Source: Thermoplasmatota archaeon (lineage in GTDB: Archaea; Thermoplasmatota; Penumbrarchaeia; Penumbrarchaeales; Penumbrarchaeaceae). From it: DNA of 64,000 bases. Positions within the stretch are counted from its first letter, which is position 1; each line of letters starts with the position of its first letter. The stretch spans positions 43,308 through 107,307 of the forward strand of contig JBLIRH010000001.1 in the NCBI GenBank assembly GCA_049472215.1. The letters are read 5' to 3'. Position numbers and translations under genes: made by a program. Positions 11,196-37,482 of this stretch are shown here, piece by piece. Below the pieces are notes generated by a model that did not search any database, was not told the origin of the DNA, and was given only the letters and a program-made list of their open reading frames with translations.

Positions 11196-11221
11196 CCATC
11201 CTCCCTCCTCAACAGTTATCT

Positions 11222-13618
11222 TTACTGGTACCTCAGAGCGTCCCCCGGCCTGAACCTCGCCGCCCTGTGCAGCGGGAACTGAATTATCAGCAGAGTCAGG
11301 ACCACTGTCACTCCCAGCGCGACCATCACGAAGGTCACCGGGAAGAGAACGTCCATCTCGAGGTTCAGGATGTTGAACATGATCCAGTTCAGGAACTGGG
11401 TCACACCGTAACCGAGCGGTATTCCGATCAATCCGCCCATCAGTGCAAGGGTGACACCTTCGGTCCCGAACATCCTGCGAATATGCGAGGACCTGGAGCC
11501 CAGGCACCTCATCATTCCTATCTCCCTCGTTCTCTCCAGTATATTCATTGTAAGCGTGGACATCAGGCCGATCATGGTGATCAGGACGATGATGGTCCCT
11601 ACCGCGATCATGAGGTTCACGACCTGGTTGTTGGCCCTGATGTTGTTCTCCTTCATCACGTAGAGGATGTTGATGGCGACAACATATCCTCTGGCCATGA
11701 GGTCGTCCTCGATCTCGTTGGCAGCCTTGTCGATCAGGTCATGGTCCTTGCTCTCCATGACGATGGAGAAACCCGATACTATATCGTCGATCTTCAGGAT
11801 GTCCTGGACAGTATCTATCGGCAGATACCCGACCATACCGTTCATCATCTGGCCCGAGTTGATCCCTACCACCTTGAAGTCCATGCTTCCGGCGGCAGTA
11901 TCTATGTATACAACGTCTCCCAGAGAGATGCTCTCGGCCCTGGAGATGGCTTTCCCTACAACGATCACCCGTTCTCTAGATGCCTGCTCCTCCTCCGTGA
12001 ACCAGCGCCCTTTCCACATCGTTCCTTCAACATTGAAAGTGGGGATGTCGTGCTCGTATCCGAACATATAGATCTCACTCTCTCCAAGGTTTCCGACGCT
12101 AATGACGAACGGATCCGCCTTTTCAACTCCGTCGATGCTCTCGATATTGTAGGCGACCCCTTCAGTGAGAGGCTTGGCTCCTTCCATCTGGCCCTCGGCC
12201 AGGATATCGTATGTGAAATAGTCATACTCCCGTTCGACAGCGACCGCAAGGGAATGCCCCGTTGCAACTATTCCGAGGAACATGGAAACGGCCAGTGCCA
12301 CCTGGAGCATCGTCGATATTGACCTGCCCTTCTTTCTGGCACCGTTGCGGAGCCCCATCTGGGCGGTCCTTGGAAGCCATTTCGACCTCAGGAGAACCTT
12401 GTCGATGAGGGAGCCGCCGTAGTTCGCACTTATCCCCGCATCCTGGAGCCCCTCCCTGGTATTCATCTTGAGGGCGCCCCACAACGAAGGAACCGTGGCG
12501 ATGAGAGTTATTCCGATACCTACGACCACGGACATCACGATGGTGGGTAAGTAGACCGAGAACCCTGGCACGAGTCCGTAGAAGCTCGTTCCAAGGAACC
12601 AGACCATGCCGTATGCGACCCAGATGCCAAGGAAGGCTCCGATCGTCGAACCGATCGTTCCCATGATGAAGGATGTCGTAAGGTAGGATCTCGCAACCTG
12701 CTGTCTGGTCGCACCCACCGCCTTCATCTGGGCGATCTCCTTCTTCTGCTCGCTTATTATGGTGTGCATGGTGTTGGATATGAGGAAGATAGAGCAGAAC
12801 AGGGTCATGAAGGTCAGGACATAGAAGAAGGAGCCCATGTTAGCAAAATGCTCCTGACCGGGCCAGTTCCCGTCCGTCCTCGTCTCGGGCATGTCGGTGA
12901 AGGCCACGAAGCCAGTGTTCTCCTCCAGATATGTCTTGATATCCTGGACAGCTTGGTCCACTTTTCCCGATGAAGCATCGACCAGGTCCACCGATAGCGA
13001 GTTGTATCCAGTCGTGTTGGACAATGTTCTGACCGTTCCGATATCCGCGAAGAACACCGCGATCCCGTAGGTCGAGTGATCATAGGTCAGTGTGCGGCCC
13101 TTTCCGGAGATGTAGAGATCGACCACGGATCCATCCACATCGATGACCCTTAGTTCATCTCCCGTACCTGCCTTGAGAAGGTCGTTCCGGGAGTTCCCGG
13201 AATCTGTGAGGACCTCCATGTGATCAGGATACGAGCCGGTTTCGAGGGAGACCTTATCGACCTTCATGTTGTTGAAATCCGTCATCCCGATGAACAGAGC
13301 GTCGTTTCTCCGCTCGCCTATGTATATCCTTGTGAAGAATATGAGCTTGGGCTCGACGCTCTCCACGTTGTCCAATGACTCGAGGCCCTGTATGTCCTCT
13401 TCATCGAGATCGACGTTCTGCATGCCTGCCCTTACGTTCCACATATTCGTCTCGTCGATATCATGGAACATCGCATCGTCGAACAGGGGGACCACCGCGA
13501 ACATGCCGAGGGCGGCTACCCCGAGTGCTATGGTAAGGATGGTGAATATCGTTCTCGATTTCCTCTTCTTGAGGTCTCCAAAGGATTTCTTGAGAAGCGT
13601 TGGTTTCATTCGCATCAC
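11222..13618 (-). CDS. ABC transporter permease, MacB/FtsX-like with duplicated FtsX modules (paralogue of 7430-10474)
   Basis: 798 aa with an N-terminal TM, large extracytoplasmic domains and FtsX-type TM bundles. GTG start overlaps the stop of the upstream small ORF. Confidence 0.75.
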
Positions 13619-21517: not shown

Positions 21518-22561
21518 TTGTTATCATTCATGGTGACGGGGAAGTTTGACATGCAGACCGTCTATATTGTGATATTCCTGCTCGTTTTCATAGTCGTCCT
21601 GATCTTCCTTAGTGGTTGGTTCTCGGGAACCGAGACGGCCCTCACAAATATCGGACCTTCCACCGTGGCATCGATGAAGCGCGAGGGTGACAGGAATGTG
21701 AAATATGTCATCAAGTTGAAAAGAAGAATGGACAGAACCCTCATTACGATCCTGATCGGCAACAATATCGTCAATATCGTTCTATCCTCGGTGGCGGCCC
21801 TAGTCGCAAATGAACTCTTCGCCGAGATAGGTGTCACCATCATGGTCGGTGTCATTACATTCCTCGTCATACTCTTTGGAGAGATAACGCCGAAGAACAA
21901 CGCCATCTTCAATTCCCGCAAGAAAGCCAGGCGAAGTTCAAGGGCGATCTACTACCTGTCGGTCATCTTGACCCCGGTGATCCAGGTTTTCATATTCCTT
22001 TCAAGCGCATTGATCAGGCTCATGGGCGGTTCGACGGAAGAAGCAAGGCTTTTCACGTCGGATGAGGAGATCAAAGGTATCGCAACCCTTTCGGAGGAGG
22101 AAGGTGTGATCAAACCCATTGAGCGTGAGATAATCCACCAGGTGTTCACGTTCGGCGACCGAAAGATATCCGATGTCATGGTCCCTATGAATAAGGCATT
22201 CACCATGAAGAGTGACATGAAGATAGTAAAGGCCAGAAAGAAGCTGTACAATTCCGGTTTTACCCGTGTTCCTTTCTTGAACAGCAAGGGAAAGGTCATA
22301 GGGATCATCAACAGCAAGGATACACTGGGAGCCCGTTTTGGAGGGATCAAGGGTCTTCTGAGGAAACCGTTTGTCGTGAATGAAAATGATGATGTCACGG
22401 ATGTTTTCACAAGAATGAAGAACGGGCACATACACATGGCAATAGTCAAGGACAATAATGAGGACCATGTTGGGATCGTGACCCTTGAGGACCTGATCGA
22501 GGAACTGGTGGGCGAGATCTATGATGAGTTCTTCGATATGAAGAGGTCTCCCAATGAATGA
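21518..22561 (+). CDS. CNNM/CorC-HlyC family transporter (DUF21 membrane domain + CBS pair)
   Basis: N-terminal 4-TM DUF21-like region (LSGWFSGTETAL..., GEITPKN) followed by two CBS-like segments. Confidence 0.7.
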   Translation: MLSFMVTGKFDMQTVYIVIFLLVFIVVLIFLSGWFSGTETALTNIGPSTVASMKREGDRNVKYVIKLKRRMDRTLITILIGNNIVNIVLSSVAALVANELFAEIGVTIMVGVITFLVILFGEITPKNNAIFNSRKKARRSSRAIYYLSVILTPVIQVFIFLSSALIRLMGGSTEEARLFTSDEEIKGIATLSEEEGVIKPIEREIIHQVFTFGDRKISDVMVPMNKAFTMKSDMKIVKARKKLYNSGFTRVPFLNSKGKVIGIINSKDTLGARFGGIKGLLRKPFVVNENDDVTDVFTRMKNGHIHMAIVKDNNEDHVGIVTLEDLIEELVGEIYDEFFDMKRSPNE

Positions 22562-22630
22562 CCTACATGATATGACAGGGTCAGATTCGCTAAATTGAAA
22601 TAATCAAAAGGGACATTCAGCGGTGATATC

Positions 22631-23575
22631 ATGGATGGTTTCTGGAAGAAGGTAATGATCGTTTCAGGTCTTGTGCTTTTAACCATCATCCTTGCGGTCG
22701 TGGACCTCCAGTTCGAATTCAAATATTCACAAAAGGTCTTTCTCACATCAGTAGCCGTTACTTTTCTCTATCTTGTACTCAAGTTCCTTGTCGAAGAACT
22801 GTTGGTAGGCAAGCTCAAGGATTACAAAACCCGCTACACCGTGAAAAAGGCCACATCGGTCCTATTTCTTCTCCTGGTATTGGTTTTCGTTATCGGTATT
22901 TGGATCGAGAACACGCAAGCAATCCTCGTTGCTTACGGACTGATCGCTGCCGGGATCGCCATTTCACTTCAGGACCTCTTCAAGGGATTCACGGGCGGTA
23001 TCCTCATTCTGATGAACAATCTCTATCGGGTGGGAGACAGGATCAATGTCGGCAATGTTTACGGAGACGTGATGGACATCGGGATCCTTTATACCACTTT
23101 GATGGAAACACGGGGTTGGGTCAAGGGAGACCAGGCCACAGGTAGGATAATTTCCATGCCCAATTCGACTGTATTGACCACAAGTGTCAATAACTACACG
23201 AAGGACCATAATTTCCTCTGGGAGGAGATCAATGTTCCGGTTACCTTCGATAGCAACTGGGAAGCCCTGATCCCCCCCTTCCTGGAGTTGGTCAGGGAAT
23301 ATACTAAGGACCTGACAAAACTCGCCTCGAAAGAAGTGGAAAACATGGGAGAGAAGTATTACCTTCCAAAAAGGGACGTCGAATCGGCGGTCTTTATCAG
23401 CTTCGATGATAATTGGATCAACATCAGCGTGAGATATGTCACTGAGGCCAGGAAACGAAGGGTCCATGCCGACAATCTCTACAGGATGTTGTTGAAGGAA
23501 GCCCTGAAACACAAAGATGTCAAGATATCACAATCCCAGCTGGAATCCTGGAGGTATGGTGAAGGTCCGTCCTGA
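22631..23575 (+). CDS. Small-conductance mechanosensitive channel (MscS family)
   Basis: Three N-terminal TMs, then the MscS beta-domain motif VGDRINVGNVYGDVMDIGILYTTL...GRIISMPNS. Confidence 0.8.
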   Translation: MDGFWKKVMIVSGLVLLTIILAVVDLQFEFKYSQKVFLTSVAVTFLYLVLKFLVEELLVGKLKDYKTRYTVKKATSVLFLLLVLVFVIGIWIENTQAILVAYGLIAAGIAISLQDLFKGFTGGILILMNNLYRVGDRINVGNVYGDVMDIGILYTTLMETRGWVKGDQATGRIISMPNSTVLTTSVNNYTKDHNFLWEEINVPVTFDSNWEALIPPFLELVREYTKDLTKLASKEVENMGEKYYLPKRDVESAVFISFDDNWINISVRYVTEARKRRVHADNLYRMLLKEALKHKDVKISQSQLESWRYGEGPS

Positions 23576-24359: not shown

Positions 24360-27300
24360 ATGATTACGGGGAGAGAAATAATGAAGGGAGCCCTTTCCTT
24401 TATCCTGGTGATCGTCCTGTTATTTTCATCTACATTCCTTTTTCTTATACTGCAGGAAGCCGATCCGAATGGAATGATGGTGAGCTCCTCCTCATACCTT
24501 TCCGGGCTCTCGGGTCCTATCCACATCTATGATGATGATAGTTTCATCTCCCAAGCAGAATCGAACAACTGGACCGGAAATGGAAGGAATGAGCCGTTCA
24601 TCATCAGGGATCTCGAAATTGACTGCCATGGCGGTGAATATGGAATAAAAATTGACGGAACATCATTCAGTTTCATCATCCAAAACTGCAGGATCTCCAA
24701 TGCCTCCGGCCTATTGGGTGCCGGAATCTACGTTGGGCGATGGATCGGGGGCGCTTTGATCGATAGCTGCAACATCACGTCATGTCCAAACGGGATTTAT
24801 CTAGAAGCAACAACGCTCGACCTGAGGAACAACAGTATCAGCAGGAATGCTGTTGGAATTCATGTATATCTTGGTTACGACATAGAGATAGTCGGAAATC
24901 ACTGCTTTGAAAATGAAAAGGGAATATACATCTCAGAAAGTTCAGGTATCATCAGAGTGGATTCCAATTACCTGATGAACAATACCGAATGCGGCCTGGA
25001 AACCGCGGATTTTGGAGAACCGGTCATTGTCACAAACAACACGGTCGAGAACAATGACTTCGGTTTGCTGATCTCGGATTCCCCTTATTCGAGGATAGTT
25101 GGGAACCGTCTTTCGAACCAGGACGATCACCACATAAGGATAGAAAGCGATAATGTCGTCGTTGAGGGTAATATCGCAAACGGGCACGGCGATGGTCTGT
25201 ACCTCACGGGAAATTCACATGATGTTACCGTGATCAATAATAGCTTGATCGGTAACTGGGAGTATGGCATTTATATCGACAAAGGATGTTATGATAATAA
25301 TTTTTACAGCAATGAAATGGTGAACTGTTCCTTCTATCTTGAGCCGGATATCGATGTAATAAGGGGGCAAAAAATTTCCGAGAACAATACGGTGAATCAT
25401 AGAAGGGTCGTTCACCTCTTTGATAGAACATACAGGTCCGCGGTTCCGCCCTATGAATATGGTCTGAACCTGTCAAAGGACATAGGACAGATCATCCTTG
25501 GTAAGGTGGACGGGGTCTGCATTTTCGACTGCAATCTCAGCAATGGAACGGTAGGTCTCGAGCTCGTCGAGTGCAACAACATCTTCACCTGGAACAATAC
25601 GATGTCCGATAACACCTATTACGGCCTCTTTACCAGGAACAACGGCCTCATATATGTCAACCGATCCCGGTTCGAACGGAATTTGGTTGGAATGGAGGTT
25701 GAATCCATAGAATTCAAAACAAATAACAGCATCATATGCAACAATACGGAAGGCATCCATCTGATAGGTGAGAAGATCGGTCATGAGGTTGAGAAGAACA
25801 GTATTTTCGGGAACTCGATCGGGATCAAGATAGATCCTTGGCCGGTTACCTCCTCCATCCCATATGTGATCCGCGACAACAATATATCCCACAATATTGA
25901 AACAGGCCTTTATATAGGATCGTACGTGTGTGAGGTCAAGAATAACTTGTTGATGGACAATCCTACTGGACTCTTTTTTGAATATACCGAATACGCAATA
26001 AATGAGGACAACACCTTCATCGGGAACGGTGTGGGGGTTCGATCGAAAAATTCCGGATTGATCTCCGGGGGAAATTCCTTCATTGGTTGTGGTGTCGGTA
26101 TCGAGGTCGGCCCATCCGGTTCATTTGAGAGCCTCCTTTCATACAATTACTTTCGTAATAGCACTAACAACGGTATCCTATTGAATGAAGCCAGTGATGT
26201 ATTGGTCGGGGGCAACATATTCGACGGATCCGATTCTTACGGGATCGAGGTCTATCGCAGCGAAAATATCACCCTCAGAACGAATTCTTTCAATCGATGT
26301 TCACTCCACATCACGGGGACCGATCCATCCCATTTCACAGATATCAAGGTCGAAGAGGAGAACACGGTAAATTCTAAACCTTTGGTCATGATCGTGTCCC
26401 AGTCGGGTTCTGGTTTGCCGGTGAACGATCCGGGCCAGGTCTTGATAATAGGTTCCAGCAATATCAGTGTCACCGGGAAGAGCTTCGATAACATTACCTG
26501 TTCTATCCTCTCTGCATTTTGTCAGGATATCAGGGTCCAGGATTGCTGGTTCGAGGACCAGTATTGTCCGATCGAGGTCTTTGAATGTTCAGATATCGTG
26601 GTCGATTCGAGCCATTTCATGAACATCGAGTTTGGAATACGATGTATCTCATCGGATAAATTGACCATAAAGGACTCCGATCTCAGCGGGATCGATACTC
26701 AGGGTCTCGATCTGAGGGATACCTCATTGATCGAAATATTTGATTGTTCTTTTGAGAACGGTAGCGGAACCGGAATGGCACTTCAGGATTGCCACTATGT
26801 GGAGATCACAAAGAACGTCATCACGAAGATGGAACAGGGCATTCGATTGATGGGGGGAACCACCGGAACCGATATTTCGAATAATCTGATAGGTTGGAAC
26901 ACCGGATACGGTTTGGTGGTTGTGAAAGGTTCCAGATACAATACGATCCATTGGAATGCATTCTTGTTCAATAATCAGACATCCTTTGATCCTTTGAGAT
27001 CCAAAGGCGACCCCCAGATCTTGAACGACGATGCAACAACGGAGATAGAATGGAACCATTGGAACACTTATGGGAGGTCCTCAAAGGACAACAATGAGGA
27101 TGGGGTGTTCGACGATCCGTACTGGGTCGGCCCTCGTGTTTACAATATGGACAACAATCCACTCGTTCATCCGCCCGAGGCCATTCTACCGATACCAAAG
27201 GATATCCATGGTTATCTGACCAAGACCCTCGAAGCCAGTAATATCACTCTATACTTTAATTTGAACAAAGGGATCAAGAGAGCCCAGGTTTTGAACATCA

Positions 27301-28667
27301 CGGTAAACATTTCTGTTGGTGACCAAAGGCGGTCATACCAGATTCCCTTCAAGGAGGATGGCATCCATCACATTTCCTTTAAGGCACCTTCAGACGGGGG
27401 AGATGTTGAGTTCGAGCTAAGAACACAGAGTCTAGCCGGTTCCAGCAGGATCGTGAAATACATTTTCCCCGAGGATCGGACGCCCCCCCATATCAAGATC
27501 CTTTCACCGAGAAACGGTTCCGTCCTTAACTCGTCGTTGGTAAGGATCCGGTGGGAGGCATTTTCCAAGGTCGGAGGGGGCCTATTTGAACTGTACCTAT
27601 CCCAAAACGGTGAAGAATCTTTGGACCTGGATCCTATGAGCATGGACCAAAATCACTCCATTGTCGCAAACGAAGGAGCGAATACAATAAAGATCAGCGC
27701 AATGGACCATTTTGGCAATACGGCATCCGATACGATCGAGTTCATATTGGATACCCTTCCACCATCGTTTTCCATTGAAGGCGGCGGACCCACGATGAAC
27801 CCTGTTAAGATACAGTGGGAGTTCCACAATATCGAGAACGAGACGCTCAGGATGTGGTGGCGTCAAATAGGCTTTGAGTGGACCGAGATCGATCCGTTCA
27901 GCTTGCTTCTGGAACTTGACCTGCCCGATGGAGGCCAGATAATTAAACTGATGACAAGGGACCTCGCGGGTAATGTTTTCGCAACAAGAGTTGACCTTGT
28001 TGTCGATGCCACTCCACCCCAGGTATTGGCATGGGGGCCCTCGGTGACGGAATGGGAGCCCAATGATAAGATCTGGATAAAGTTCTCTGAGAAAATGGAC
28101 GTAAATTCGATCGATATCGTCATCCCGGGAATGGAATTCTCGTTCGAAGCTGTCGCTGACGATGAAGTACGTATCTCTCCCCTCATGGTCCTCGAGCGTG
28201 GGATGGAGTTCAACATCACCGTAAATGGAATGGACCTCGCGGGAAACACCATGCTGCCCTTTACCTTCATATTCTCCGCGGGAGAGGGTCCGGTCGACCA
28301 ACTACTTGGAACCTTGATCATCCTCATTACGAACAGGGAGGGGGATCCATTATATGGAGCCAAGGTCACGGTCTTTCCGTTGAACCGGGTTTTTGAACAG
28401 CAATATGGAGACACAATAGAGGTCGACCTACAACCCGGTGAATACGAGCTTCAGGCGGAAGCCGAGGGTTACCGGGCCAGTGTGATCACCGTGACGATCG
28501 TCGCTGGAACAACCGTTTCCGAAGTGGTCGTCCTTGAGAAGGAGGAGGAAAGCGGCCAGAGCTTCGTTCCTGTTCTCATTTTGATCATGACATTCGCAGT
28601 GGTCCTGTTGGTCTTCCTTCTATTGATAATATACCTTCGAAGTGAAAAAGAGTATCAAGAGGAATGA
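24360..28667 (+). CDS. Giant (1435 aa) surface glycoprotein with right-handed parallel beta-helix (PbH1) repeats, CarboxypepD_reg-like domain and C-terminal TM anchor
   Basis: Signal peptide. Dozens of beta-helix rungs of the form N.I.[GN]N...GI.[IL]. Many N-x-S/T sequons. C-terminal PVLILIMTFAVVLLVFLLLIIYL helix with a short charged tail. Confidence 0.7.
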   Translation: MITGREIMKGALSFILVIVLLFSSTFLFLILQEADPNGMMVSSSSYLSGLSGPIHIYDDDSFISQAESNNWTGNGRNEPFIIRDLEIDCHGGEYGIKIDGTSFSFIIQNCRISNASGLLGAGIYVGRWIGGALIDSCNITSCPNGIYLEATTLDLRNNSISRNAVGIHVYLGYDIEIVGNHCFENEKGIYISESSGIIRVDSNYLMNNTECGLETADFGEPVIVTNNTVENNDFGLLISDSPYSRIVGNRLSNQDDHHIRIESDNVVVEGNIANGHGDGLYLTGNSHDVTVINNSLIGNWEYGIYIDKGCYDNNFYSNEMVNCSFYLEPDIDVIRGQKISENNTVNHRRVVHLFDRTYRSAVPPYEYGLNLSKDIGQIILGKVDGVCIFDCNLSNGTVGLELVECNNIFTWNNTMSDNTYYGLFTRNNGLIYVNRSRFERNLVGMEVESIEFKTNNSIICNNTEGIHLIGEKIGHEVEKNSIFGNSIGIKIDPWPVTSSIPYVIRDNNISHNIETGLYIGSYVCEVKNNLLMDNPTGLFFEYTEYAINEDNTFIGNGVGVRSKNSGLISGGNSFIGCGVGIEVGPSGSFESLLSYNYFRNSTNNGILLNEASDVLVGGNIFDGSDSYGIEVYRSENITLRTNSFNRCSLHITGTDPSHFTDIKVEEENTVNSKPLVMIVSQSGSGLPVNDPGQVLIIGSSNISVTGKSFDNITCSILSAFCQDIRVQDCWFEDQYCPIEVFECSDIVVDSSHFMNIEFGIRCISSDKLTIKDSDLSGIDTQGLDLRDTSLIEIFDCSFENGSGTGMALQDCHYVEITKNVITKMEQGIRLMGGTTGTDISNNLIGWNTGYGLVVVKGSRYNTIHWNAFLFNNQTSFDPLRSKGDPQILNDDATTEIEWNHWNTYGRSSKDNNEDGVFDDPYWVGPRVYNMDNNPLVHPPEAILPIPKDIHGYLTKTLEASNITLYFNLNKGIKRAQVLNITVNISVGDQRRSYQIPFKEDGIHHISFKAPSDGGDVEFELRTQSLAGSSRIVKYIFPEDRTPPHIKILSPRNGSVLNSSLVRIRWEAFSKVGGGLFELYLSQNGEESLDLDPMSMDQNHSIVANEGANTIKISAMDHFGNTASDTIEFILDTLPPSFSIEGGGPTMNPVKIQWEFHNIENETLRMWWRQIGFEWTEIDPFSLLLELDLPDGGQIIKLMTRDLAGNVFATRVDLVVDATPPQVLAWGPSVTEWEPNDKIWIKFSEKMDVNSIDIVIPGMEFSFEAVADDEVRISPLMVLERGMEFNITVNGMDLAGNTMLPFTFIFSAGEGPVDQLLGTLIILITNREGDPLYGAKVTVFPLNRVFEQQYGDTIEVDLQPGEYELQAEAEGYRASVITVTIVAGTTVSEVVVLEKEEESGQSFVPVLILIMTFAVVLLVFLLLIIYLRSEKEYQEE

Positions 28668-28733: not shown

Positions 28734-29996
28734 ATGGTCCAGTCTTTCTACGCTTCTGTGTTGGAGCAGATCGACTCCACGGTCGAGCGTCTCTGCATCG
28801 ATCCCGGCATCGCCAAGATAATAAAGACCCCCGAAAGGGAGCTTACGGTCCAGATCCCCATTGTCAACGATGAGGGTGAGATCGATGTCTTTACCGGTTA
28901 CAGGGTCCAGCATAACTCTGCAAGGGGCCCCTGCAAGGGGGGCGTCAGGTACCACCCTCAGACAGACCTCGATGAGGTCAAGGCGCTGGCAACCCTCATG
29001 TCATTGAAATGCGCCGTGGCGAACGTCCCCTTCGGCGGGGCAAAGGGCGGTGTCACCTGCGATCCCAGTGAGCTGAGCAGATGCGAGATCCAGAAGATCA
29101 CAAAGAGATATGCAACGATGATCAATCCGTTCATAGGGCCTAAGAAGGATATTCCCGCTCCGGATATGAACACCAACGCTGAGACCATGGGGTGGTTCAT
29201 GGATGCCGTATCCATGTACGCCGGTCATACGATGCTCGATATCGTGACCGGGAAACCGCTCGAGCTGGGAGGATCTCTTGGAAGAAGGGAAGCGACCGGT
29301 AGAGGTGTCATGCTCAATACCATGGAGCTTCTGAACAGGCTCGGTCGGGACCCGAAGAAGACAACGGTTGCGGTACAGGGTTTCGGGAACGTAGGCTCGG
29401 TAGCGGCTCAGCTGATCACCGAGCAGGGGTCCAAGGTTATTGCAGTGAGCGATATGTCCGGTTTGCTCTATGATCCCGATGGAGTGGACGTGGACGCGCT
29501 TGTCAAGTTCGTCTATTCTGGGCCAAGGCCGCGGCTCTTCAAGGATTTCGAAGGTCCGGGCCATACATTCGAAAAAGAGGGAACTAAGATACTTTACGAG
29601 GATGTTGACGTTCTCGTCCCTGCAGCCCTTGAGAACCAGATAACGATCGATAATGCCGACAAGGTGAAAGCACGCATCATAGTGGAAGGTGCGAACGGCC
29701 CTATCACAAAGAGGGCAGATTCGGTAATGATCGAAATGGGAACACATGTGATACCGGACATTCTCGCTAACAGCGGTGGTGTCATAGCCTCCTATTTCGA
29801 ATGGGTCCAGGGGATACAGTCATTCTTCTGGGACGAGGATGAGGTGAACAGGCATCTCAAGAGGATCATGCTGAAGTCCTTCAAGGAGGTCTGGGATATG
29901 GCTCAAAAGGAAAAGATAACCCTCAGGGAAGCAGCATTCACTCTTGGGATCTCAAAGATCTCCAATGCCTTGGAACTGAGGGGTATATTCCCATAA
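28734..29996 (+). CDS. gdh: Glutamate dehydrogenase (420-aa class)
   Basis: KGGVRYHP, PFGGAKGGV and GFGNVGS are GDH family motifs. Confidence 0.9.
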   Translation: MVQSFYASVLEQIDSTVERLCIDPGIAKIIKTPERELTVQIPIVNDEGEIDVFTGYRVQHNSARGPCKGGVRYHPQTDLDEVKALATLMSLKCAVANVPFGGAKGGVTCDPSELSRCEIQKITKRYATMINPFIGPKKDIPAPDMNTNAETMGWFMDAVSMYAGHTMLDIVTGKPLELGGSLGRREATGRGVMLNTMELLNRLGRDPKKTTVAVQGFGNVGSVAAQLITEQGSKVIAVSDMSGLLYDPDGVDVDALVKFVYSGPRPRLFKDFEGPGHTFEKEGTKILYEDVDVLVPAALENQITIDNADKVKARIIVEGANGPITKRADSVMIEMGTHVIPDILANSGGVIASYFEWVQGIQSFFWDEDEVNRHLKRIMLKSFKEVWDMAQKEKITLREAAFTLGISKISNALELRGIFP

Positions 29997-30047
29997 CAGC
30001 TTGTCAGCCTGATTAAATACCTCCAATCCAATCACTTAGCGGTCGAT

Positions 30048-31814
30048 ATGTTCAGGATACGAAGGATCGATAATTGGACAACACCTGGAAGTAAACAGGC
30101 AGTGACCAAGGTACAAGAGATGATCCGGGACCATTTTGAGAATGAAAGTGAGTACATCATACTGAGCATACCATCATCCCTTCATGACCCGATCATTCGA
30201 AAATATCGATCGATAATCTTCATCGCAGAGGGTTCCCAGGATAATGTCCAAGGAGCTGCTATCCTGCTTCACTTCCCCGACCATAGATTCTGTTTTCTGG
30301 ATTACATATTCTCTTCCAAGGGCAAGCTCGGCCGCGGGGTCGGCAGCGCCCTATATGAAAGGGCCAGGTACGAAGCCCGTTCCCTGAATTGTATCGGGAT
30401 ATTCCTCGAATGCCTGCAGGAGACCGTCCAAGCTGAACCGGACCCATCGATAAGAAAGGAGAATGTTGCACGCTTAAAATTCTATGAAAGATATGGTGCA
30501 AGACCGATCATGAACACGAAATACGAGACCCCACTCATAGCGGAGGACCTTAATCCCCCTTATCTTGTTTACGACGATCTCAGCCAGGACAGGAGGTTGA
30601 GAAAGAAGGAGGCAAGAGGTATCGTCAGGGCAATACTCGAGAGGAAGTACAAGGGCCTATGTCCTCCGGATTATGTCGAATTGGTTGTCGGATCGTTCAT
30701 GGATGATCCGGTCCGTTTGCGGGAGCCGAAGTATACCCGGGAAGACAAGTTCATATCTGTTGGAAGTTCGATCCCCCAAGACAGGCTCATCCCGCTTATC
30801 ATAAACGACAAACATGAGATCCATCATGTTCATGAAAGGGGATATGTTGAATCACCCGTCAGGATCCGTTCCATTATCAAAGGATTGGAAGACAGCGGTC
30901 TTTTTGAACGGGTCGCTGTGGAAAGATACAGAGAATCCGAGGTCCTTGCGGTCCATGATCGAAGGTATGTCGATTATTTTAAAAAGGTCTGTAGCAACCT
31001 ACCACCTGGAAAATCCGTCTATCCCTACGTATTCCCGATCAGGAACAGGACAAAACCTCCCAGGGAGCTCTTGATGAGGGCAGGCTACTTCTGCATCGAT
31101 ACCTTCACTCCTTTGAACAAGAATGCTTACCTGGCAGCTAGGAGAGCCGTGGATTGCGCGCTCACCGGGGCGGATAGGATTCTGAAGGGAGAAATGATAT
31201 CATATGCACTAGTAAGACCTCCTGGCCATCACGCGGGCAAGGATTATTTTGGCGGTTTCTGTTACTTCAACTCCAATGCCATTGCAGCCAACAGGTTGTC
31301 GCGTGAAGGAAAGGTCGCCATTCTGGACATCGACTACCACCACGGGAACGGGCAGCAGGACATATTTTATGAAAGAAGTGATGTGCTTACCATAAGCATA
31401 CATGGCCATCCCTCGTTTGCCTATCCATATTTTACCGGTTTCAAGGATGAGAGAGGGATCGGAGATGGTCTTGGTCATAACTGGAACATCCCTCTCCCCG
31501 AGAGAGCAAGCGGCGACGATCATTTTCGCGCCCTTGAGGTCGCACTTGACCACATCAGGAAGTTCGACCCGGATTTTCTCGTTGTGGCTTTCGGGATGGA
31601 TACAGCCAAGGGAGATCCGACCGGAACTTGGGATCTTCTTGTGAAAGATTTCGAGAGGAACGGCCGCTTAATAGGCTCCATGAAAGTACCAATCCTAGTT
31701 GTTCAGGAGGGGGGGTACAGGAACAGAATACTCGGTGGGAATGCAAAACATTTCTTCAGGGGTATTTTCAAGGGGACCTATACTTCAGGTAATGCTTCCA
31801 TGGTCGTTCAGTAG
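30048..31814 (+). CDS. Fusion of GNAT-type acetyltransferase (N-terminal) and HDAC/AcuC-type deacetylase (C-terminal)
   Basis: N-terminal LHFPDHRFCFLDYIFSSKGKLGRGVGSALYERARYEA is GNAT motif A. C-terminal VRPPGHHAG...GFCYFNSNAIAA...ILDIDYHHGNGQQDIF...ISIHGHP are class I/II HDAC (arginase-fold deacetylase) motifs. Confidence 0.7.
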   Translation: MFRIRRIDNWTTPGSKQAVTKVQEMIRDHFENESEYIILSIPSSLHDPIIRKYRSIIFIAEGSQDNVQGAAILLHFPDHRFCFLDYIFSSKGKLGRGVGSALYERARYEARSLNCIGIFLECLQETVQAEPDPSIRKENVARLKFYERYGARPIMNTKYETPLIAEDLNPPYLVYDDLSQDRRLRKKEARGIVRAILERKYKGLCPPDYVELVVGSFMDDPVRLREPKYTREDKFISVGSSIPQDRLIPLIINDKHEIHHVHERGYVESPVRIRSIIKGLEDSGLFERVAVERYRESEVLAVHDRRYVDYFKKVCSNLPPGKSVYPYVFPIRNRTKPPRELLMRAGYFCIDTFTPLNKNAYLAARRAVDCALTGADRILKGEMISYALVRPPGHHAGKDYFGGFCYFNSNAIAANRLSREGKVAILDIDYHHGNGQQDIFYERSDVLTISIHGHPSFAYPYFTGFKDERGIGDGLGHNWNIPLPERASGDDHFRALEVALDHIRKFDPDFLVVAFGMDTAKGDPTGTWDLLVKDFERNGRLIGSMKVPILVVQEGGYRNRILGGNAKHFFRGIFKGTYTSGNASMVVQ

Positions 31815-31904
31815 GCTAGATCATGAGGGTGGAATTAGAATCACATTGAAGGTACTGTTTATATACAAAAACTTGGTTTCAGGTTCGACCCCAAGCCTTA
31901 CTAG

Positions 31905-33332
<1,428 letters not shown>

Positions 33333-33350
33333 TCCGTTAGGGACAATTCG

Positions 33351-33385
33351 GGCCCCGGAAACCGGGGCCTTCTTTTTTCATTTTT
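33351..33385 (+). terminator. Intrinsic-terminator-like hairpin GGCCCCGG-AAA-CCGGGGCC followed by a T-tract, downstream of gdhA
   Basis: Read directly: 8-bp perfect GC stem, 3-nt loop, then ttcttttttcattttt. Confidence 0.5.
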
Positions 33386-34995
33386 CAACTATCAAGTACT
33401 TCCATTGCCGATTCCCTGTAGGCATCCATCAGATACGGGATGCCCGATATCTTAGAAGATTCTTCGGTGAGCGCCATCAGATCGTCACGCGATAAGGATG
33501 ATAGGCTGAAGTTCCTGCTTCCCGCCATCAACTGCTGGAGGCCCACTTTAAGTTTGTTAGTGAAGGTGTAGATCCCGATAGCACCCAGGGGTATCTCCTG
33601 GATATCCTTACCAAACTTATCCCGGAGGGTTTCATATTCGACGAAGATCTCCTGTTTTTTAGACCCGAAGTTTGCGACCGTCTTTGGCAGGTTATCCTCA
33701 TCCATCCATTTCTTGATGTTCTTGCCCACGAATCCCGGGATCATCAGACCTCTCCCCATGCAGACCGCTTTGAAGTAGGGACTGCCCATTGCCAGTGCCT
33801 TGAAGACCCCATCCTCGCTGGAGAATCCTCCTGCCATTGCCATATCCGGTAACTTCAAGCCCTTTTTGCGTAGTTTCTCGGCGAACTCGTAGGCAAGGCA
33901 CTGGAGGTAGAATGTGGGTATGCCCCATTCTGTCATCATCGGCCATGGGCTCATGCCGGTACCTCCAGGGGCCCCATCAATGGTTAGGAGGTCGATCTTT
34001 GCTTCCGAGCTGTATTTAAGGGCCATGGCCAGTTCGATCATGGAATATGCGCCGGTCTTCAACGTGACCCGTTTGAATCCGATATCCCTCAGTCGATCCA
34101 CCTCCTCCAGGAAACCCTCCTTCGTCACGAAACCGAGCCTGGAATGCCTTTCGAATTCCCGTATGCCTCCTTCATGGAAGGCTTCCTGGATGCTCTTTAG
34201 GGTGGGATCAGGGGTGACGATATATCCCCGTTTCTTGAGTTCCAGGGCACGGTCCAGTGATTTCACCCTGATCTCCCCGCCGATGCATTTCGCACCCTGC
34301 CCCCATTTCAGCTCCAGGGTGTCCAATTCATGCTTGGATGAAACATATTCAGCTACTCCCAAGCGTGTATCCTCGACATTCATCTGAACGAGCAGCTCTC
34401 CGTATCCTTCATGGAACTTCCTGTAGATCTCTATTCTTCGGTCCATTTCCGGGGAGCTCGTTATTTTGCCGTTGGAATCCCTGACATGGTCCGGATCGAC
34501 CCCGCAGACATTTTCACCGCATACCAATGTGATCCCGGAGATAGCGGCCCCTATAGCGAAATGCTGCCAGTTCCTCCTGGCGATCTCGGTCGAGCCTAGA
34601 GCTCCGGTGAAAACAGGAACCCTGAGCTTCACCTTCTTATCCCAACCGTATTCTGTCTCGGTGTTCACATCCGTGAAAAGGGCGGAATCCGGTCCGATCT
34701 CGACCCCGTCTGGCAGGCCTTTGGCCCCCCGTGCATATCCTTGGATATTGAGATGGGAATAATCTACCGGATATTCCTTGTCTGCACCCGCGGTGATATG
34801 TCCAAAAGGTCCGGGATAAAGCACCTCCCTTCCCCTGAACGATGAAAGCCAAATCTCACAGCCTCCCGTGCAGCCATCCAAACACCTGGTGCATATGCCC
34901 GACATGGGGGACACACTTCTGGAGCGGTTGAAGGTCCCCGTCGCTTCATTCGAATTCGGTCTTCTCAAGTTCATTATGTTTCCCCCATTTTTCAA
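33385..34995 (-). CDS. Archaeal-type glutamate synthase subunit (GltB FMN-binding/Fe-S domain 2 homologue)
   Basis: N-terminal Cys cluster CTRCLDGCTGGCE, then a GOGAT FMN-domain region ...DGAPGGTGMSPWPMMTEWGIPT...AMAGGFSSEDGVFKALAMG.... Confidence 0.8.
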   Translation of the reverse strand: MKNGGNIMNLRRPNSNEATGTFNRSRSVSPMSGICTRCLDGCTGGCEIWLSSFRGREVLYPGPFGHITAGADKEYPVDYSHLNIQGYARGAKGLPDGVEIGPDSALFTDVNTETEYGWDKKVKLRVPVFTGALGSTEIARRNWQHFAIGAAISGITLVCGENVCGVDPDHVRDSNGKITSSPEMDRRIEIYRKFHEGYGELLVQMNVEDTRLGVAEYVSSKHELDTLELKWGQGAKCIGGEIRVKSLDRALELKKRGYIVTPDPTLKSIQEAFHEGGIREFERHSRLGFVTKEGFLEEVDRLRDIGFKRVTLKTGAYSMIELAMALKYSSEAKIDLLTIDGAPGGTGMSPWPMMTEWGIPTFYLQCLAYEFAEKLRKKGLKLPDMAMAGGFSSEDGVFKALAMGSPYFKAVCMGRGLMIPGFVGKNIKKWMDEDNLPKTVANFGSKKQEIFVEYETLRDKFGKDIQEIPLGAIGIYTFTNKLKVGLQQLMAGSRNFSLSSLSRDDLMALTEESSKISGIPYLMDAYRESAMEVLDS

Positions 34996-35328: not shown

Positions 35329-35658
35329 TTAAATAAGACGATCATGGAATGTCTTGTATCCTTTGATAATATCGGATATATTTCCGTATTGATTCGGAAT
35401 GATCCTGATATTGACCTCTTTGAATGCCTGTTCTATAGCGGGGGCCATCCTTCCCGCTATGACAACATCAATGCCCGAATTTATTAGCTGTTTTGCATAA
35501 AAAAGACCGGCTCTACCCCCATCAATGAACTCATTCAGGGTAACGAATTCGGTCATTCCGTCATCCGTGTCATGGATGGCAAAATGTCTGGATTGTTCGA
35601 AGACATCCTCCAGGGGACTTTGGAGGCAGTCAACCTTGCATGGTATGGCTATCTTCAT
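35329..35658 (-). CDS. Dinitrogenase FeMo-cofactor-binding domain protein (NifX/NafY-like)
   Basis: MKIAIPC...HF.....DDG...VVIAGRMAP resembles the Nitro_FeMo-Co fold. Start taken at MKIAIP (35658); the track start is 35715. Confidence 0.6.
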   Translation of the reverse strand: MKIAIPCKVDCLQSPLEDVFEQSRHFAIHDTDDGMTEFVTLNEFIDGGRAGLFYAKQLINSGIDVVIAGRMAPAIEQAFKEVNIRIIPNQYGNISDIIKGYKTFHDRLI

Positions 35659-36057
35659 AGGGTCACTCCCTTGCTGCTTTTCCTGATGGATCGAACGCGT
35701 CCGATATCTCAGCAAGACATAGATGAACTTGTGACAATATTAAGTTAAGCAACAGATTCATATTACATATTTCAGTAAAATGACAGACCAAATCACCAAA
35801 TCGCCCGTATTATTCCTTAAACTTGCAGGATATTTTAGAAAAAATTTTACAAATCTAAACTATTACCACGAACATCATGATCTCCATTGAATATCCATCG
35901 AAATATTCCTAAACCTGTTGTATAATGACATAGTGACCTCAACCGAATGACTTGTTTTCTCGAATCCACTTCTTTTCATGAAATAACATTATGAAACAAG
36001 AAGCAAAGATAGAATGAGTTATATACTATTTATTATCATAAGAAATGTAGCGTTCCA

Positions 36058-36612
36058 TTGTTACATTTGGTGGTACGAGTGGACAATTCTAAAAAGACCA
36101 ATAAAAAGGTGGAAGATGCCGATATAATCAAATGGCTCCTTGAGGACCCCACAAGAAGCCTGAACGAGATGGCCAAGTCATTGAACCTGTATCGACAGAC
36201 CCTCTGGCGGAGAAAGAAGAAGCTGGAGGACGACAAGGTCATCTGGGGATATACCGCCGTAGTGGACGAGAACAAATTGGGGAACGTTATCTATCTTGTA
36301 TTGATGAAGATGAAGCCCATGACCCGGGGTCTGGCCGATATTATCTACAGGCGGATAAAGAACGAGGAAATGGGTAGATTGAACGTCAGGTTGATCGATG
36401 CCTTCCACGTGAACGGCGACTATGATTGGGTCCTCCGCTTCTCTGCTCCAGACCATGCCACCGCGAGGAAGTACTATGATGCCATAAGGGTGATCTACGA
36501 GGACTACCTGATAGAGAAACCCGTTATAGTGGATGTGAATTTCATAGTGAAAGCGGAGGGGATGAAAAATCCTGATCTCGAGAACTTGTATAAATTCGTC
36601 CCGGAGATATAG
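36058..36612 (+). CDS. Lrp/AsnC-family transcriptional regulator (HTH + RAM domain)
   Basis: DIIKWLLEDPTRSLNEMAKSLNLYRQTLWRRKKKLEDDKVIWGYTAVVD is an AsnC-type HTH followed by a RAM-like C-terminal domain. The true start may be GTG at ~36079. Confidence 0.75.
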   Translation: MLHLVVRVDNSKKTNKKVEDADIIKWLLEDPTRSLNEMAKSLNLYRQTLWRRKKKLEDDKVIWGYTAVVDENKLGNVIYLVLMKMKPMTRGLADIIYRRIKNEEMGRLNVRLIDAFHVNGDYDWVLRFSAPDHATARKYYDAIRVIYEDYLIEKPVIVDVNFIVKAEGMKNPDLENLYKFVPEI

Positions 36613-36675: not shown

Positions 36676-37482
36676 ATGAGATCGAAGATACTTGTGGCCA
36701 TTGGCGTTTTGCTTGCATTGATCGGCCTTTTCTTCTTTGCGGTCAGTCTGGAAGAGATCATCAATCCTACGCCCACGGAGAACGAGGAAGGAGAGGAGGT
36801 CGAGGGAGACAGCGGCCTCGGAATTTGCATGATGGTGATCTGCGTCCCGATCTTCTGGGTCCCGGCTGGTTTCCTATTCTATTTCGGACTCGAGGACAGG
36901 GCTGGGACAGATCTCGATGACGTTGCATCACTTCTTCGCTCTTACGAGGAGATCTCCATCGAGGATGCAGCCGAGATACTGAATATCTCCGAGAGAAAAA
37001 CGGAGAAGAAGGTCCACCAATGCATCGACAGGGATATGTTAGGGGGCCGGGTCATCAATGCTGTTTATTACTCTCCGGCCAAACTGGAATACTTGAATAG
37101 AAGGACCGACTGGATAGAGAGGTTGAAGGATGTTGCAGATATCCTAATTGCCTACCGCCGGGTAGAGATAAAGGTCGTGGCAAAGAAGATCGGTCAGGAT
37201 ATCCCGACCACCGAGAGATTGATCTTAGAATGTATCGAGGAAGGGATGGTGAAGGGTTATCTCTCCTCGAAGCAGCATGTTTTTTACACCCAGGAGTACC
37301 TGGAGCAGCTGGATGATGCAAGGGTAGGCTGGACCTGTGATAAATGCGGGGCGCATCATGACGAGGTGCTTCTTCCCGGGGACTATGGGAAGTGCACCTA
37401 TTGCGGATCCATCTCGAAAGCAAAGGGGATCTCGATAGCTTCATCCGAGGTGGAGAAAGCATTGGAAGCTATCGAACTCTGA
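36676..37482 (+). CDS. Membrane-anchored protein with two N-terminal TM helices, two winged-helix-like modules and a C-terminal CxxC...CxxC zinc ribbon
   Basis: TMs ILVAIGVLLALIGLFFFAV and ICMMVICVPIFWVPAGFLFYF. Two ~60-aa helical/wing units (AAEILNISERKTEKKVHQCI...; VVAKKIGQDIPTTERLILECIEEGMVKGYL). C-terminal CDKCGAHH...CTYCGS. Confidence 0.45.
   Translation: MRSKILVAIGVLLALIGLFFFAVSLEEIINPTPTENEEGEEVEGDSGLGICMMVICVPIFWVPAGFLFYFGLEDRAGTDLDDVASLLRSYEEISIEDAAEILNISERKTEKKVHQCIDRDMLGGRVINAVYYSPAKLEYLNRRTDWIERLKDVADILIAYRRVEIKVVAKKIGQDIPTTERLILECIEEGMVKGYLSSKQHVFYTQEYLEQLDDARVGWTCDKCGAHHDEVLLPGDYGKCTYCGSISKAKGISIASSEVEKALEAIEL

Follow-up and report, generated by a model that had tools for sequence, protein, structure and literature searches.

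We analysed a 64,000-nucleotide stretch of DNA from a Thermoplasmatota archaeon (contig JBLIRH010000001.1 of assembly GCA_049472215.1; hereafter the window) and focused on a forward-strand gene that encodes, in a single open reading frame, an N-terminal GNAT acetyltransferase domain and a C-terminal domain of the histone deacetylase (HDAC) fold. The protein sequence is identical to that of NCBI entry MGA1792374.1, which is named 'MAG: acetylpolyamine amidohydrolase [Thermoplasmatota archaeon]' and derives from a metagenome-assembled genome (MAG). A preliminary description, made from the sequence alone, had read the gene as a GNAT–HDAC fusion lying between two glutamate dehydrogenase (gdh) genes and close to a glutamate synthase (GOGAT) gene. 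The fusion itself is borne out by Pfam and by fold for both halves, and its parts are given below, where APAH denotes acetylpolyamine amidohydrolase and residue conservation was counted in 120 family members from archaea and many bacterial phyla.

30048–31814, forward strand: complete GNAT–APAH fusion gene (588-amino-acid open reading frame)
30048–30647, forward strand: N-terminal GNAT acetyltransferase domain, residues 1–200 (Pfam Acetyltransf_1; Foldseek GNAT fold; hhalign)
30330–30350, forward strand: presumed acetyl-CoA pyrophosphate-binding loop (motif A), G95-R-G-V-G-S-A101 (residue conservation)
30408–30485, forward strand: putative GNAT catalytic residues E121 (strand 5), N139 and Y146 (helix 4, 'FYERYG') (conservation)
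30648–30782, forward strand: conserved helical extension and variable linker, residues 201–245 (both structural models; alignment)
30783–31781, forward strand: C-terminal APAH-type HDAC-fold deacetylase domain, residues 246–578 (Hist_deacetyl; PDB sequence and Foldseek matches)
30999–31112, forward strand: loop matching the polyamine-specificity loop (L2/PSL) of APAH, residues 318–355 (alignment to 6phr and 9gkz)
31215–31232, forward strand: RPPGHH motif (390–395) with the putative catalytic pair H394 and H395 (both 120/120)
31326–31340, forward strand: D427-I-D429-Y-H431, presumed K+ ligand and two Zn ligands (all 120/120)
31599–31625, forward strand: putative third Zn ligand D518 and gatekeeper motif P524-T-G526 (D518, P524, T525 and G526 all 120/120)
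31707–31718, forward strand: EGGY motif (554–557) with putative catalytic Y557 (120/120)

The preliminary description had named absence of the fusion from relatives as a finding that would speak against it; relatives are in fact encoded in at least 553 species-representative genomes. In 5.8 billion protein clusters at least 7977 matches at E ≤ 1e-5 were found among 8000 scored candidates, and the best 120 matches listed, which came from independent projects, were all 577–617 amino acids long with a query coverage of 98–100%. Identity to the fusion was 61–74% in the closest relatives, Thermoplasmatota among them, and approximately 58–60% in Dehalococcoidia, Calditrichia, Woeseiaceae, Syntrophales and others. 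Searching 1.84 billion proteins with an N-domain-only profile found 801 representatives, which were full-length fusions or shorter, possibly fragmentary sequences. Mean column identity was 69–71%, with the GNAT half, the deacetylase half and the inter-domain helices all conserved, and the full-length AlphaFold model had a pLDDT of 86.2 and a pTM of 0.85. The inter-domain helices (residues 186–200 and 207–215) are present in both the full-length and the N-domain models; K200, Y201, Y209, S216 and R225 are invariant in the family alignment and residues 230–245 are variable. No NCBIfam model matches the protein (0 matches). Relatives are named in the databases as 'histone deacetylase family protein', 'GNAT family N-acetyltransferase' or 'AcuC-like enzyme/GNAT superfamily N-acetyltransferase'; automated pipelines thus recognise the domains but attach no function. 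On one metagenomic contig (L096, 11216–12224) the deacetylase half is split into two overlapping tblastn segments (11216–11782 and 11757–12224), which indicates a probable frameshift, arising from either a sequencing error or a pseudogene.

The C-terminal half matches Pfam Hist_deacetyl (PF00850) over residues 267–571 (E = 3.6e-74) and contains all of the deacetylase motifs previously quoted for it, in the stretches GGFCYFN and DIDYHHGNG. This half is APAH-type, not AcuC-type. Its best sequence relatives in the PDB, aligned over residues 266–573, are all bacterial APAH enzymes: those of Marinobacter subterrani (6PHR, E = 1.3e-64), Pseudomonas sp. (9GKZ, 2.9e-63), Mycoplana ramosa (3Q9B, 2.5e-61) and Burkholderia pseudomallei (3MEN, 1.8e-60). 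HDAH, HDAC4, HDAC10 and single domains of HDAC6 were matched by sequence at E-values of 1e-25 to 1e-36, in alignments that start only at about residue 345–364. The 16 top Foldseek matches of the full-length model were likewise all APAH, which share the fold of the C-terminal 330 residues (TM 0.84–0.90, 34–36% identity, E ~1e-30) and were followed by Kdac1, HDAC6 and HDAC10 at E ~1e-21; no AcuC-type entry stood near the top of the sequence or structure matches in the PDB.

The fusion shares with APAH its Zn ligands and catalytic residues (H394, H395, D429, H431, D518 and Y557, found in all 120 members), as well as the motifs RPPGHH and EGGY, and where APAH has the L2/PSL loop it has a loop of matching length, with only 1–3 gap positions against the same stretch of 6PHR and 9GKZ. 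The tip of this loop (residues 331–342) was modelled at pLDDT <50 and is the sole low-confidence stretch inside the deacetylase domain. The ligand roles given to D427, D429 and H431 are those that we take from alignment to HDAC8 and the APAH consensus. In a 2024 survey of bacterial deacylases, the polyamine deacetylases (ApaH) form 'cluster 4', recognised by RPPGHH and EGGY motifs, the polyamine-specificity (L2) loop and a PIS gatekeeper; EGGY marks deacetylases specific for acetyl groups, and the L2 loop drives head-to-head dimerisation and restricts access in the solved APAH dimers (PMC11532494). Two ApaH features are missing from the fusion: it has an invariant PTG at residues 524–526 in place of the PIS gatekeeper, and unlike the stand-alone enzymes of about 340 amino acids it has a 245-residue N-terminal GNAT domain plus linker. 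Its genomic context also differs, being beta-lysine or gdh genes rather than polyamine catabolism. Eukaryotic HDAC10 is similar in that the HDAC fold is specialised for N-acetyl-aminoalkyl small molecules and the gatekeeper occupies the equivalent position; however, it is distant (E ~1e-25 by sequence, 25–26% identity by structure), its gatekeeper is PEG as opposed to PTG in the fusion, and its polyamine specificity arose independently (PMC11532494).

The fusion had also been likened to the AcuA/AcuC pair of Bacillus subtilis, and it is similar to the extent that writer and eraser superfamilies are paired and encoded together. AcuA and AcuC are, respectively, a GNAT and a class I HDAC-type deacetylase that control acetyl-CoA synthetase. 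Membership of this system was rejected because the deacetylase half is APAH-type: the APAH E-values reach ~1e-64, compared with ~1e-27 to 1e-33 for protein deacetylases, and APAH fills the top 16 Foldseek places. Whereas AcuA and AcuC are separate proteins with a protein-lysine target, the fusion is a single chain, and among the annotated genes of the window there was no acetyl-CoA synthetase gene (acs), sirtuin, other protein-acetylation partner or AcuA-like gene. AcuC has been assigned to a different HDAC cluster, 2c (PMC11532494).

On the single sequence the GNAT identity of the N-terminal half was borderline, with Acetyltransf_1 (PF00583, residues 50–127) scoring 21.9 bits in the full protein and 24.8 bits in the isolated N-domain at a cutoff of 20.7, and Acetyltransf_7 scoring below its cutoff. 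Given this marginal score, the call was tested further on homologues, fold and motifs, and at the family level it is firmly supported, as the preliminary description had proposed. All 18 of 18 homologous N-domains individually match Acetyltransf_1 and Acetyltransf_7 (best E = 1.3e-7 and 3e-7 respectively), and an AlphaFold model of residues 1–232 from 40 sequences (pLDDT 91.4) gave 440 PDB matches by Foldseek at E ≤ 1e-3, the top 50 listed being without exception GNAT acetyltransferases. SpeG spermidine acetyltransferases and GCN5 lead these matches (TM 0.70–0.78 on target length, 10–18% identity). The domain has in common with SpeG/SSAT and Gcn5 the GNAT fold, the acetyl-CoA loop, the strand-5 Glu and the helix-4 Tyr; unlike them, and at only this level of identity, it starts with an N-terminus peculiar to the family (MFRIRR...), ends in a helical extension and is always fused to a deacetylase. 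By this comparison the protein may be said to resemble an APAH joined to a SpeG-like acetyltransferase.

The GNAT motif A consensus is Q/R-x-x-G-x-G/A, and from general knowledge of the superfamily we take residues 95–101 to be the acetyl-CoA pyrophosphate-binding loop. Within it G97 is present in 120/120 members, G99 in 119/120 and A101 in 109/120; R96 is variable (R in 62/120, G in 48/120). E121 and N139 were found in 120/120 members and Y146 in 119/120, with helix 4 reading 'N..ARL.FYERYG'; by analogy to Gcn5 and SSAT these residues presumably include the general base and general acid. The GNAT half is as conserved as the deacetylase half, and the catalytic residues of both halves are intact and essentially invariant in the 120 members. 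The idea that this half is an N-acetylglutamate synthase, prompted by the gdh neighbours, was dropped as Pfam NAT (PF04768) matches only 1/18 members (E = 0.15); ArgJ and ArgB adjoin the fusion in one locus only (L006).

The genomic context of the family was examined in 80 species-genome loci, which were fetched and their neighbours scored by tblastn; there were 86 non-redundant loci overall, and a well-flanked set comprised 50 loci with at least 5 kb upstream and at least 2.5 kb downstream of the fusion. In distant homologues a radical-SAM LAM_C aminomutase, two Dala_Dala_lig_C ATP-grasp proteins and a small GNAT are encoded directly beside the fusion. Well-flanked loci carried the aminomutase in 34/50, an ATP-grasp ligase in 35/50, the small GNAT in 35/50 and the full set in 32/50, and in full-set loci the genes are usually co-directional and near abutting, the small GNAT directly preceding or following the fusion. 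This beta-lysine cluster was not present in 11/50. When 13 loci without it were screened for a second recurrent context, only a GNAT recurred and no polyamine biosynthesis or transport genes did.

The cluster aminomutase matches the solved enzyme 2A5H (E = 1.7e-134) and conserves D293 and D330, which we take to be the Asp residues binding the lysine epsilon-ammonium, and K337, presumably the pyridoxal phosphate (PLP) lysine. Among NCBIfam models AblA scores best, above those for glutamate and arginine aminomutases, and the enzyme is of the lysine 2,3-aminomutase type; an identity as glutamate 2,3-aminomutase was rejected because both Asp residues are conserved and AblA is the best model. The two ligases are Ddl paralogues with scores far below the Ddl cutoffs. 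The small GNAT has no specific model, giving only weak RimI and STAT matches and none to AblB, and in hhalign it resembles the GNAT domain of the fusion (Prob 94.9%, E = 4.5e-8, 22% identity). Some clusters (L019, L023 and L042) have no small GNAT within the flank, and there the fusion GNAT is the only acetyltransferase detected. The cluster aminomutases carry an N-terminal extension that is not found in the solved Clostridium enzyme (L005 2583–4052; L006 4165–5526; L009 4885–6255, reverse strand; and many of L014–L090). In the extension an acidic-proline motif, E-E-P-P-G/S (e.g. EEEPPGK), occurs once or twice; its strict form is present in 20/50 loci with variants elsewhere across phyla, and it could be a docking or modification site.

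In a reciprocal test, a profile of the first ATP-grasp ligase (AG1) found at least 575 metagenomic relatives, from which 12 loci had a complete aminomutase–AG1–AG2–GNAT core and at least 2.5 kb on both sides. The fusion was carried by 3/12 of these core clusters, and an unfused HDAC by 0/12. Because the fusion usually accompanies the core but only 3/12 cores carry it, we infer that it is an accessory enzyme of the beta-lysine pathway and not a core step, which fits an action on the product or an intermediate of the pathway, in turnover, tailoring or recycling.

In one locus (L092, 3637–5118) the second ATP-grasp ligase and the small GNAT are themselves fused as a 493-amino-acid protein directly upstream of the GNAT–HDAC fusion, a Rosetta-stone link which argues that the ligation and acetylation steps act together. 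This locus (GCA_975902045.1, WP_455368035.1) is labelled [Eubacterium] cellulosolvens; its contig carries formylmethanofuran:tetrahydromethanopterin (H4MPT) formyltransferase (FTR), DUF3786 and a 535-amino-acid Glu_synthase-domain protein 46% identical to that of the window, and the taxonomic label may be wrong or the contig foreign.

N-epsilon-acetyl-beta-lysine is an archaeal osmolyte made by AblA and AblB in methanogens, and the account of the abl pathway mentions no deacetylase (PMC12776343). The likeness to our cluster lies in bacterial fusion homologues adjoining an AblA-like lysine 2,3-aminomutase and a GNAT, and N-epsilon-acetyl-beta-lysine would be a plausible APAH-type substrate. In contrast to the AblA/AblB system, the fusion-associated cluster adds two Ddl-like ATP-grasp ligases, its small GNAT lacks an AblB match, and tblastn of the 64-kb window at E <1e-3 found no homologue of the aminomutase, the ATP-grasp ligases or the small GNAT. 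Full-text searches of a literature collection with incomplete coverage found neither the fusion nor the five-gene cluster described.

In the window the fusion has a different setting, with the following features around it.

28734–29996, forward strand: gdh1, archaeal-type glutamate dehydrogenase, 420 amino acids, upstream neighbour (ELFV_dehydrog, E = 2e-75)
30009–30018, forward strand: TATA-like box GATTAAATA, approximately 30 nucleotides upstream of the fusion ATG
31998–33332, forward strand: gdh2, bacterial-type NADP-specific GdhA, 444 amino acids, downstream neighbour (ELFV_dehydrog, E = 2.3e-89)
33385–34995, reverse strand: Glu_synthase flavin mononucleotide (FMN) domain protein, 536 amino acids, convergent with gdh2 (Pfam PF01645, partial)

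Both gdh neighbours were therefore correctly recognised at the outset. The GOGAT assignment held in part: a Glu_synthase-domain gene is present, but its product has only a partial FMN-domain match (PF01645, E = 7e-15, profile positions 187–308 of 369) and no NCBIfam equivalog, and the gene is not in the flanks of L001 and L002. For gdh1 the NCBIfam scores were 457 bits (GdhA_Arch) and 461 bits (GdhB_Halo), both under cutoff; gdh2 scored 765 bits with PRK09414 (cutoff 536) and is 87–94% identical across L001–L003 and L011. The paralogues are of different types, gdh1 being archaeal/haloarchaeal-like and gdh2 clearly a bacterial-type NADP-GdhA, which suggests that one copy may have been acquired horizontally.

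The gdh1–fusion–gdh2 triplet was first seen in Pfam-annotated neighbourhoods of two Thermoplasmatota relatives at 73% identity and recurs in four related Thermoplasmatota loci (L001, L002/L003 and L011). The conservation that might have been expected of the gdh neighbourhood is confined to these: gdh neighbours were found in 3/86 non-redundant loci, all Thermoplasmatota at 73–74% identity, and in 2/50 of the well-flanked set, and the Thermoplasmatota homologues L091 (71% identity) and L004 (67%) have none. On the count of 3/86, gdh was rejected as a family-wide neighbour. The upstream Hef helicase, CNNM and MscS genes are also common to the triplet-bearing genomes, so the whole region is syntenic, and the gdh sandwich is lineage-specific synteny within one shallow Thermoplasmatota subclade.

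Each gene of the triplet has its own TATA-like element, and these may act as promoters. At the position of the fusion box, L001, L002 and L011 have ATTAAATA, ATTAATAC or ATTATATA; ATTAAATA about 30 nucleotides upstream of the fusion is kept in all four loci although the spacer diverges. For gdh1 the element is CTTTATAA, about 45 nucleotides upstream, and for gdh2 it is TTTATATA, about 130 nucleotides upstream and conserved. The regional synteny, the gdh-free relatives and the separate TATA-like boxes together weaken the inference that the triplet is a functional unit.

Further observations were made around the triplet. The 5' leader of gdh2 (window 31850–31997) is conserved in the four Thermoplasmatota loci (L001 9747–9970, L002 9750–9997 and L011 8442–8825) and contains the TATA box, an invariant-looking GGTTTCAGGTTCGACC block and GC-rich hairpins, the first of which shows compensatory changes (CCUUAC..GUAAGG versus CUCCUC..GAGGAG). 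It gave no Rfam match at gathering score or E ≤ 1 and its folding energy was unremarkable (z = -0.78), on which grounds a known RNA element was rejected; the leader is a candidate for cis-acting control of the NADP-GDH gene. A strong GC-rich hairpin followed by a T-run (GGGCCCCGG-AAA-CCGGGGCC TCTTTTTT, window 33350–33379) separates gdh2 from the convergent Glu_synthase-domain gene and is likely to be a bidirectional terminator. Upstream of the triplet lie genes for a CNNM/CBS transporter-like protein and an MscS-type mechanosensitive channel (window 21518–23575, L001 4482–6478, L002 1–1555), and between these and the triplet the window and L002, but not L001, have a large NosD/beta-helix surface protein (24360–28667). 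Small genes downstream encode a Nitro_FeMo-Co (NifX/NifB-like) protein (35329–35715, reverse strand), an Lrp/AsnC-type helix-turn-helix regulator (36058–36612) and a PCI-domain membrane protein (36676–37482); in L004 an AsnC_trans_reg gene is immediately upstream of the fusion. The annotated window genes included none for the metabolism of polyamines, lysine or arginine.

Given the APAH-type deacetylase half, the conserved GNAT half and the recurrent cluster, we propose, at slightly less than even odds (a probability of roughly 0.48), that the fusion is a bifunctional small-molecule N-acetyltransferase/deacetylase for a metabolite of beta-lysine or diamine type, accessory to the beta-lysine pathway. 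The GNAT half is predicted to acetylate a primary amine using acetyl-CoA, and the APAH-type half would act as a Zn-dependent amidohydrolase that takes the acetyl off a terminal N-acetyl-aminoalkyl group, so that together they would set or remodel the acetylation state, and hence the charge, of a diamine-like metabolite. As the beta-lysine pathway is the home context of the family, the likeliest substrate is N-epsilon-acetyl-beta-lysine, a beta-lysine-containing peptide or a close polyamine analogue. An APAH-type tunnel would be expected to admit N-epsilon-acetyl-beta-lysine, which amounts to N-acetylputrescine with a carboxymethyl branch. The GNAT half might return an acetyl group to the amine that had lost it, so that the molecule would switch under regulation between a cationic and a neutral form, or it might acetylate a second amine of the same molecule, in which case the outcome would be relocation of the acetyl group or tailoring. 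For the archaeon, either a related diamine or the same metabolite, supplied by genes outside the window, could serve as substrate, and adjacency to gdh would reflect at most a loose theme of nitrogen and charge balance, with glutamate as counter-anion to cationic amines. A bolder version, which we consider doubtful, is that writer and eraser in one chain make the fusion an independent acetylation switch for a small molecule rich in nitrogen, drawn from an undescribed pathway, widespread in sediment bacteria and archaea, in which a lysine 2,3-aminomutase, two Ddl-like ligases and a GNAT would build acetylated beta-lysine compounds, and redeployed beside two GDHs where it would couple cationic-amine charge to synthesis of the counter-anion glutamate as a nitrogen/osmotic homeostat.

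Several points weigh against our proposal. The beta-lysine link is transferred from bacterial homologues at about 59% identity, because the window itself lacks the aminomutase, ATP-grasp and small-GNAT genes, and the substrate would thus be assigned from context and fold. A writer and an eraser acting on the same nitrogen would constitute a futile cycle. The APAH fold may be compatible with protein substrates, given that some ApaH enzymes also deacetylate lysine in peptides (PMC11532494), and the gatekeeper is PTG in place of the ApaH PIS. At 15 positions that are otherwise fixed among the 120 members, the archaeal clade departs from the bacterial majority; F70A, P124Q, D125E and L129A are near the GNAT catalytic Glu and E397G is two residues past the His-His pair, and these substitutions may be compatible with a shifted substrate. 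Finally, the gdh triplet is kept in L001, L002/L003 and L011 despite differing outer flanks, and its survival of this rearrangement leaves room for a functional link to glutamate metabolism.

The rival that fares best, although we regard it as unlikely, is ordinary polyamine homeostasis, in which a SpeG/SSAT-like GNAT and an ApaH-like deacetylase would act on putrescine, cadaverine or spermidine, one protein neutralising excess polyamine and recovering it, and the beta-lysine neighbours would be incidental or reflect substrate similarity. The top structural matches of the two halves are indeed SpeG and APAH, the NCBI name of the protein is already acetylpolyamine amidohydrolase, and the beta-lysine cluster is missing from 11/50 well-flanked loci and from the window. 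The preliminary description had itself offered control by polyamine acetylation as an alternative, which, with an APAH-type half, came nearer the evidence than its protein-acetylation idea; the context that emerged, however, is beta-lysine and not polyamine. Polyamine biosynthesis or transport genes do not recur beside the fusion and are not among the annotated window genes, the lysine 2,3-aminomutase cluster accompanies the fusion too often to be incidental (64–68%, across many phyla), the SpeG match is at the level of fold only (16–18% identity), and PIS is replaced by an invariant PTG.

Less probable than polyamine homeostasis is a protein in which the deacetylase alone is catalytic and the GNAT half serves as an acetyl-CoA/CoA-sensing, regulatory or oligomerisation module gating the amidohydrolase, such that, for example, low acetyl-CoA would trigger the breakdown of an acetylated reserve or osmolyte to acetate and free amine. 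This would avoid the futile cycle, and it agrees with the variability of R96 in motif A and the marginal single-sequence GNAT score; moreover, with a small GNAT already in the core cluster, there is no obvious need for a second acetyltransferase. Set against this are the fixation of residues expected for catalysis beyond binding (E121, 120/120; Y146, 119/120), conservation of the GNAT domain equal to that of the deacetylase half, and the loci L019, L023 and L042 in which no other acetyltransferase was detected.

Lower still in our estimation is an AcuA/AcuC-like protein-lysine writer/eraser that regulates the flanking GDHs or other enzymes of nitrogen metabolism, the function towards which the preliminary description had leaned. 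The persistence of the triplet through changes of outer flank would suit such a switch, as would the Glu_synthase-domain gene and Lrp/AsnC regulator nearby, the presence of the histone acetyltransferase GCN5 among the top fold matches and the peptide deacetylase activity of some ApaH enzymes (PMC11532494). On the other hand, gdh adjacency is limited to 3/86 loci of one shallow clade and is lost at 71% and 67% identity, synteny in the triplet-bearing genomes spans the whole region, and a separate TATA-like box precedes each of the three genes, whereas the dominant context of the family is the lysine 2,3-aminomutase/ATP-grasp/GNAT cluster. The deacetylase, moreover, is not AcuC-type but APAH-type, with an L2-type loop of the kind that restricts access in solved APAH dimers (PMC11532494), and neither an AcuA-like GNAT nor acs is among the annotated window genes. 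Control of GDH by acetylation finds no support in this evidence and is, in our view, improbable. That the fusion is an assembly, frameshift or gene-calling artefact of its MAG source was rejected as next to impossible, the same architecture of about 580 residues recurring in at least 553 species genomes and all of the best 120 listed matches, with a conserved and confidently modelled inter-domain region.

For a metabolite-directed acetyltransferase/deacetylase of the kind we propose, the surprise lies less in the gdh sandwich than in the wide, tightly conserved fusion and its beta-lysine/ATP-grasp cluster. Both halves come from well-known families; the new part is the joining of writer and eraser, and the uncharacterised partner cluster. 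This is an obligate fusion of opposing predicted activities that retains about 59% identity between archaea and bacteria, and no characterised member was found in the literature. The names 'histone deacetylase family protein' and 'acetylpolyamine amidohydrolase' miss half of the protein, which is corrected here. The fusion marks a very common uncharacterised cluster in lineages of anoxic and marine sediments, including Dehalococcoidia, Woeseiaceae, Desulfobacterota, KSB1, Planctomycetota and Calditrichia. Identifying what the fusion acts on would delineate a new pathway to a beta-lysine-derived metabolite or osmolyte, would supply the missing deacetylase for solutes of the N-acetyl-beta-lysine type, and would test how a writer and an eraser on one chain avoid a futile cycle.

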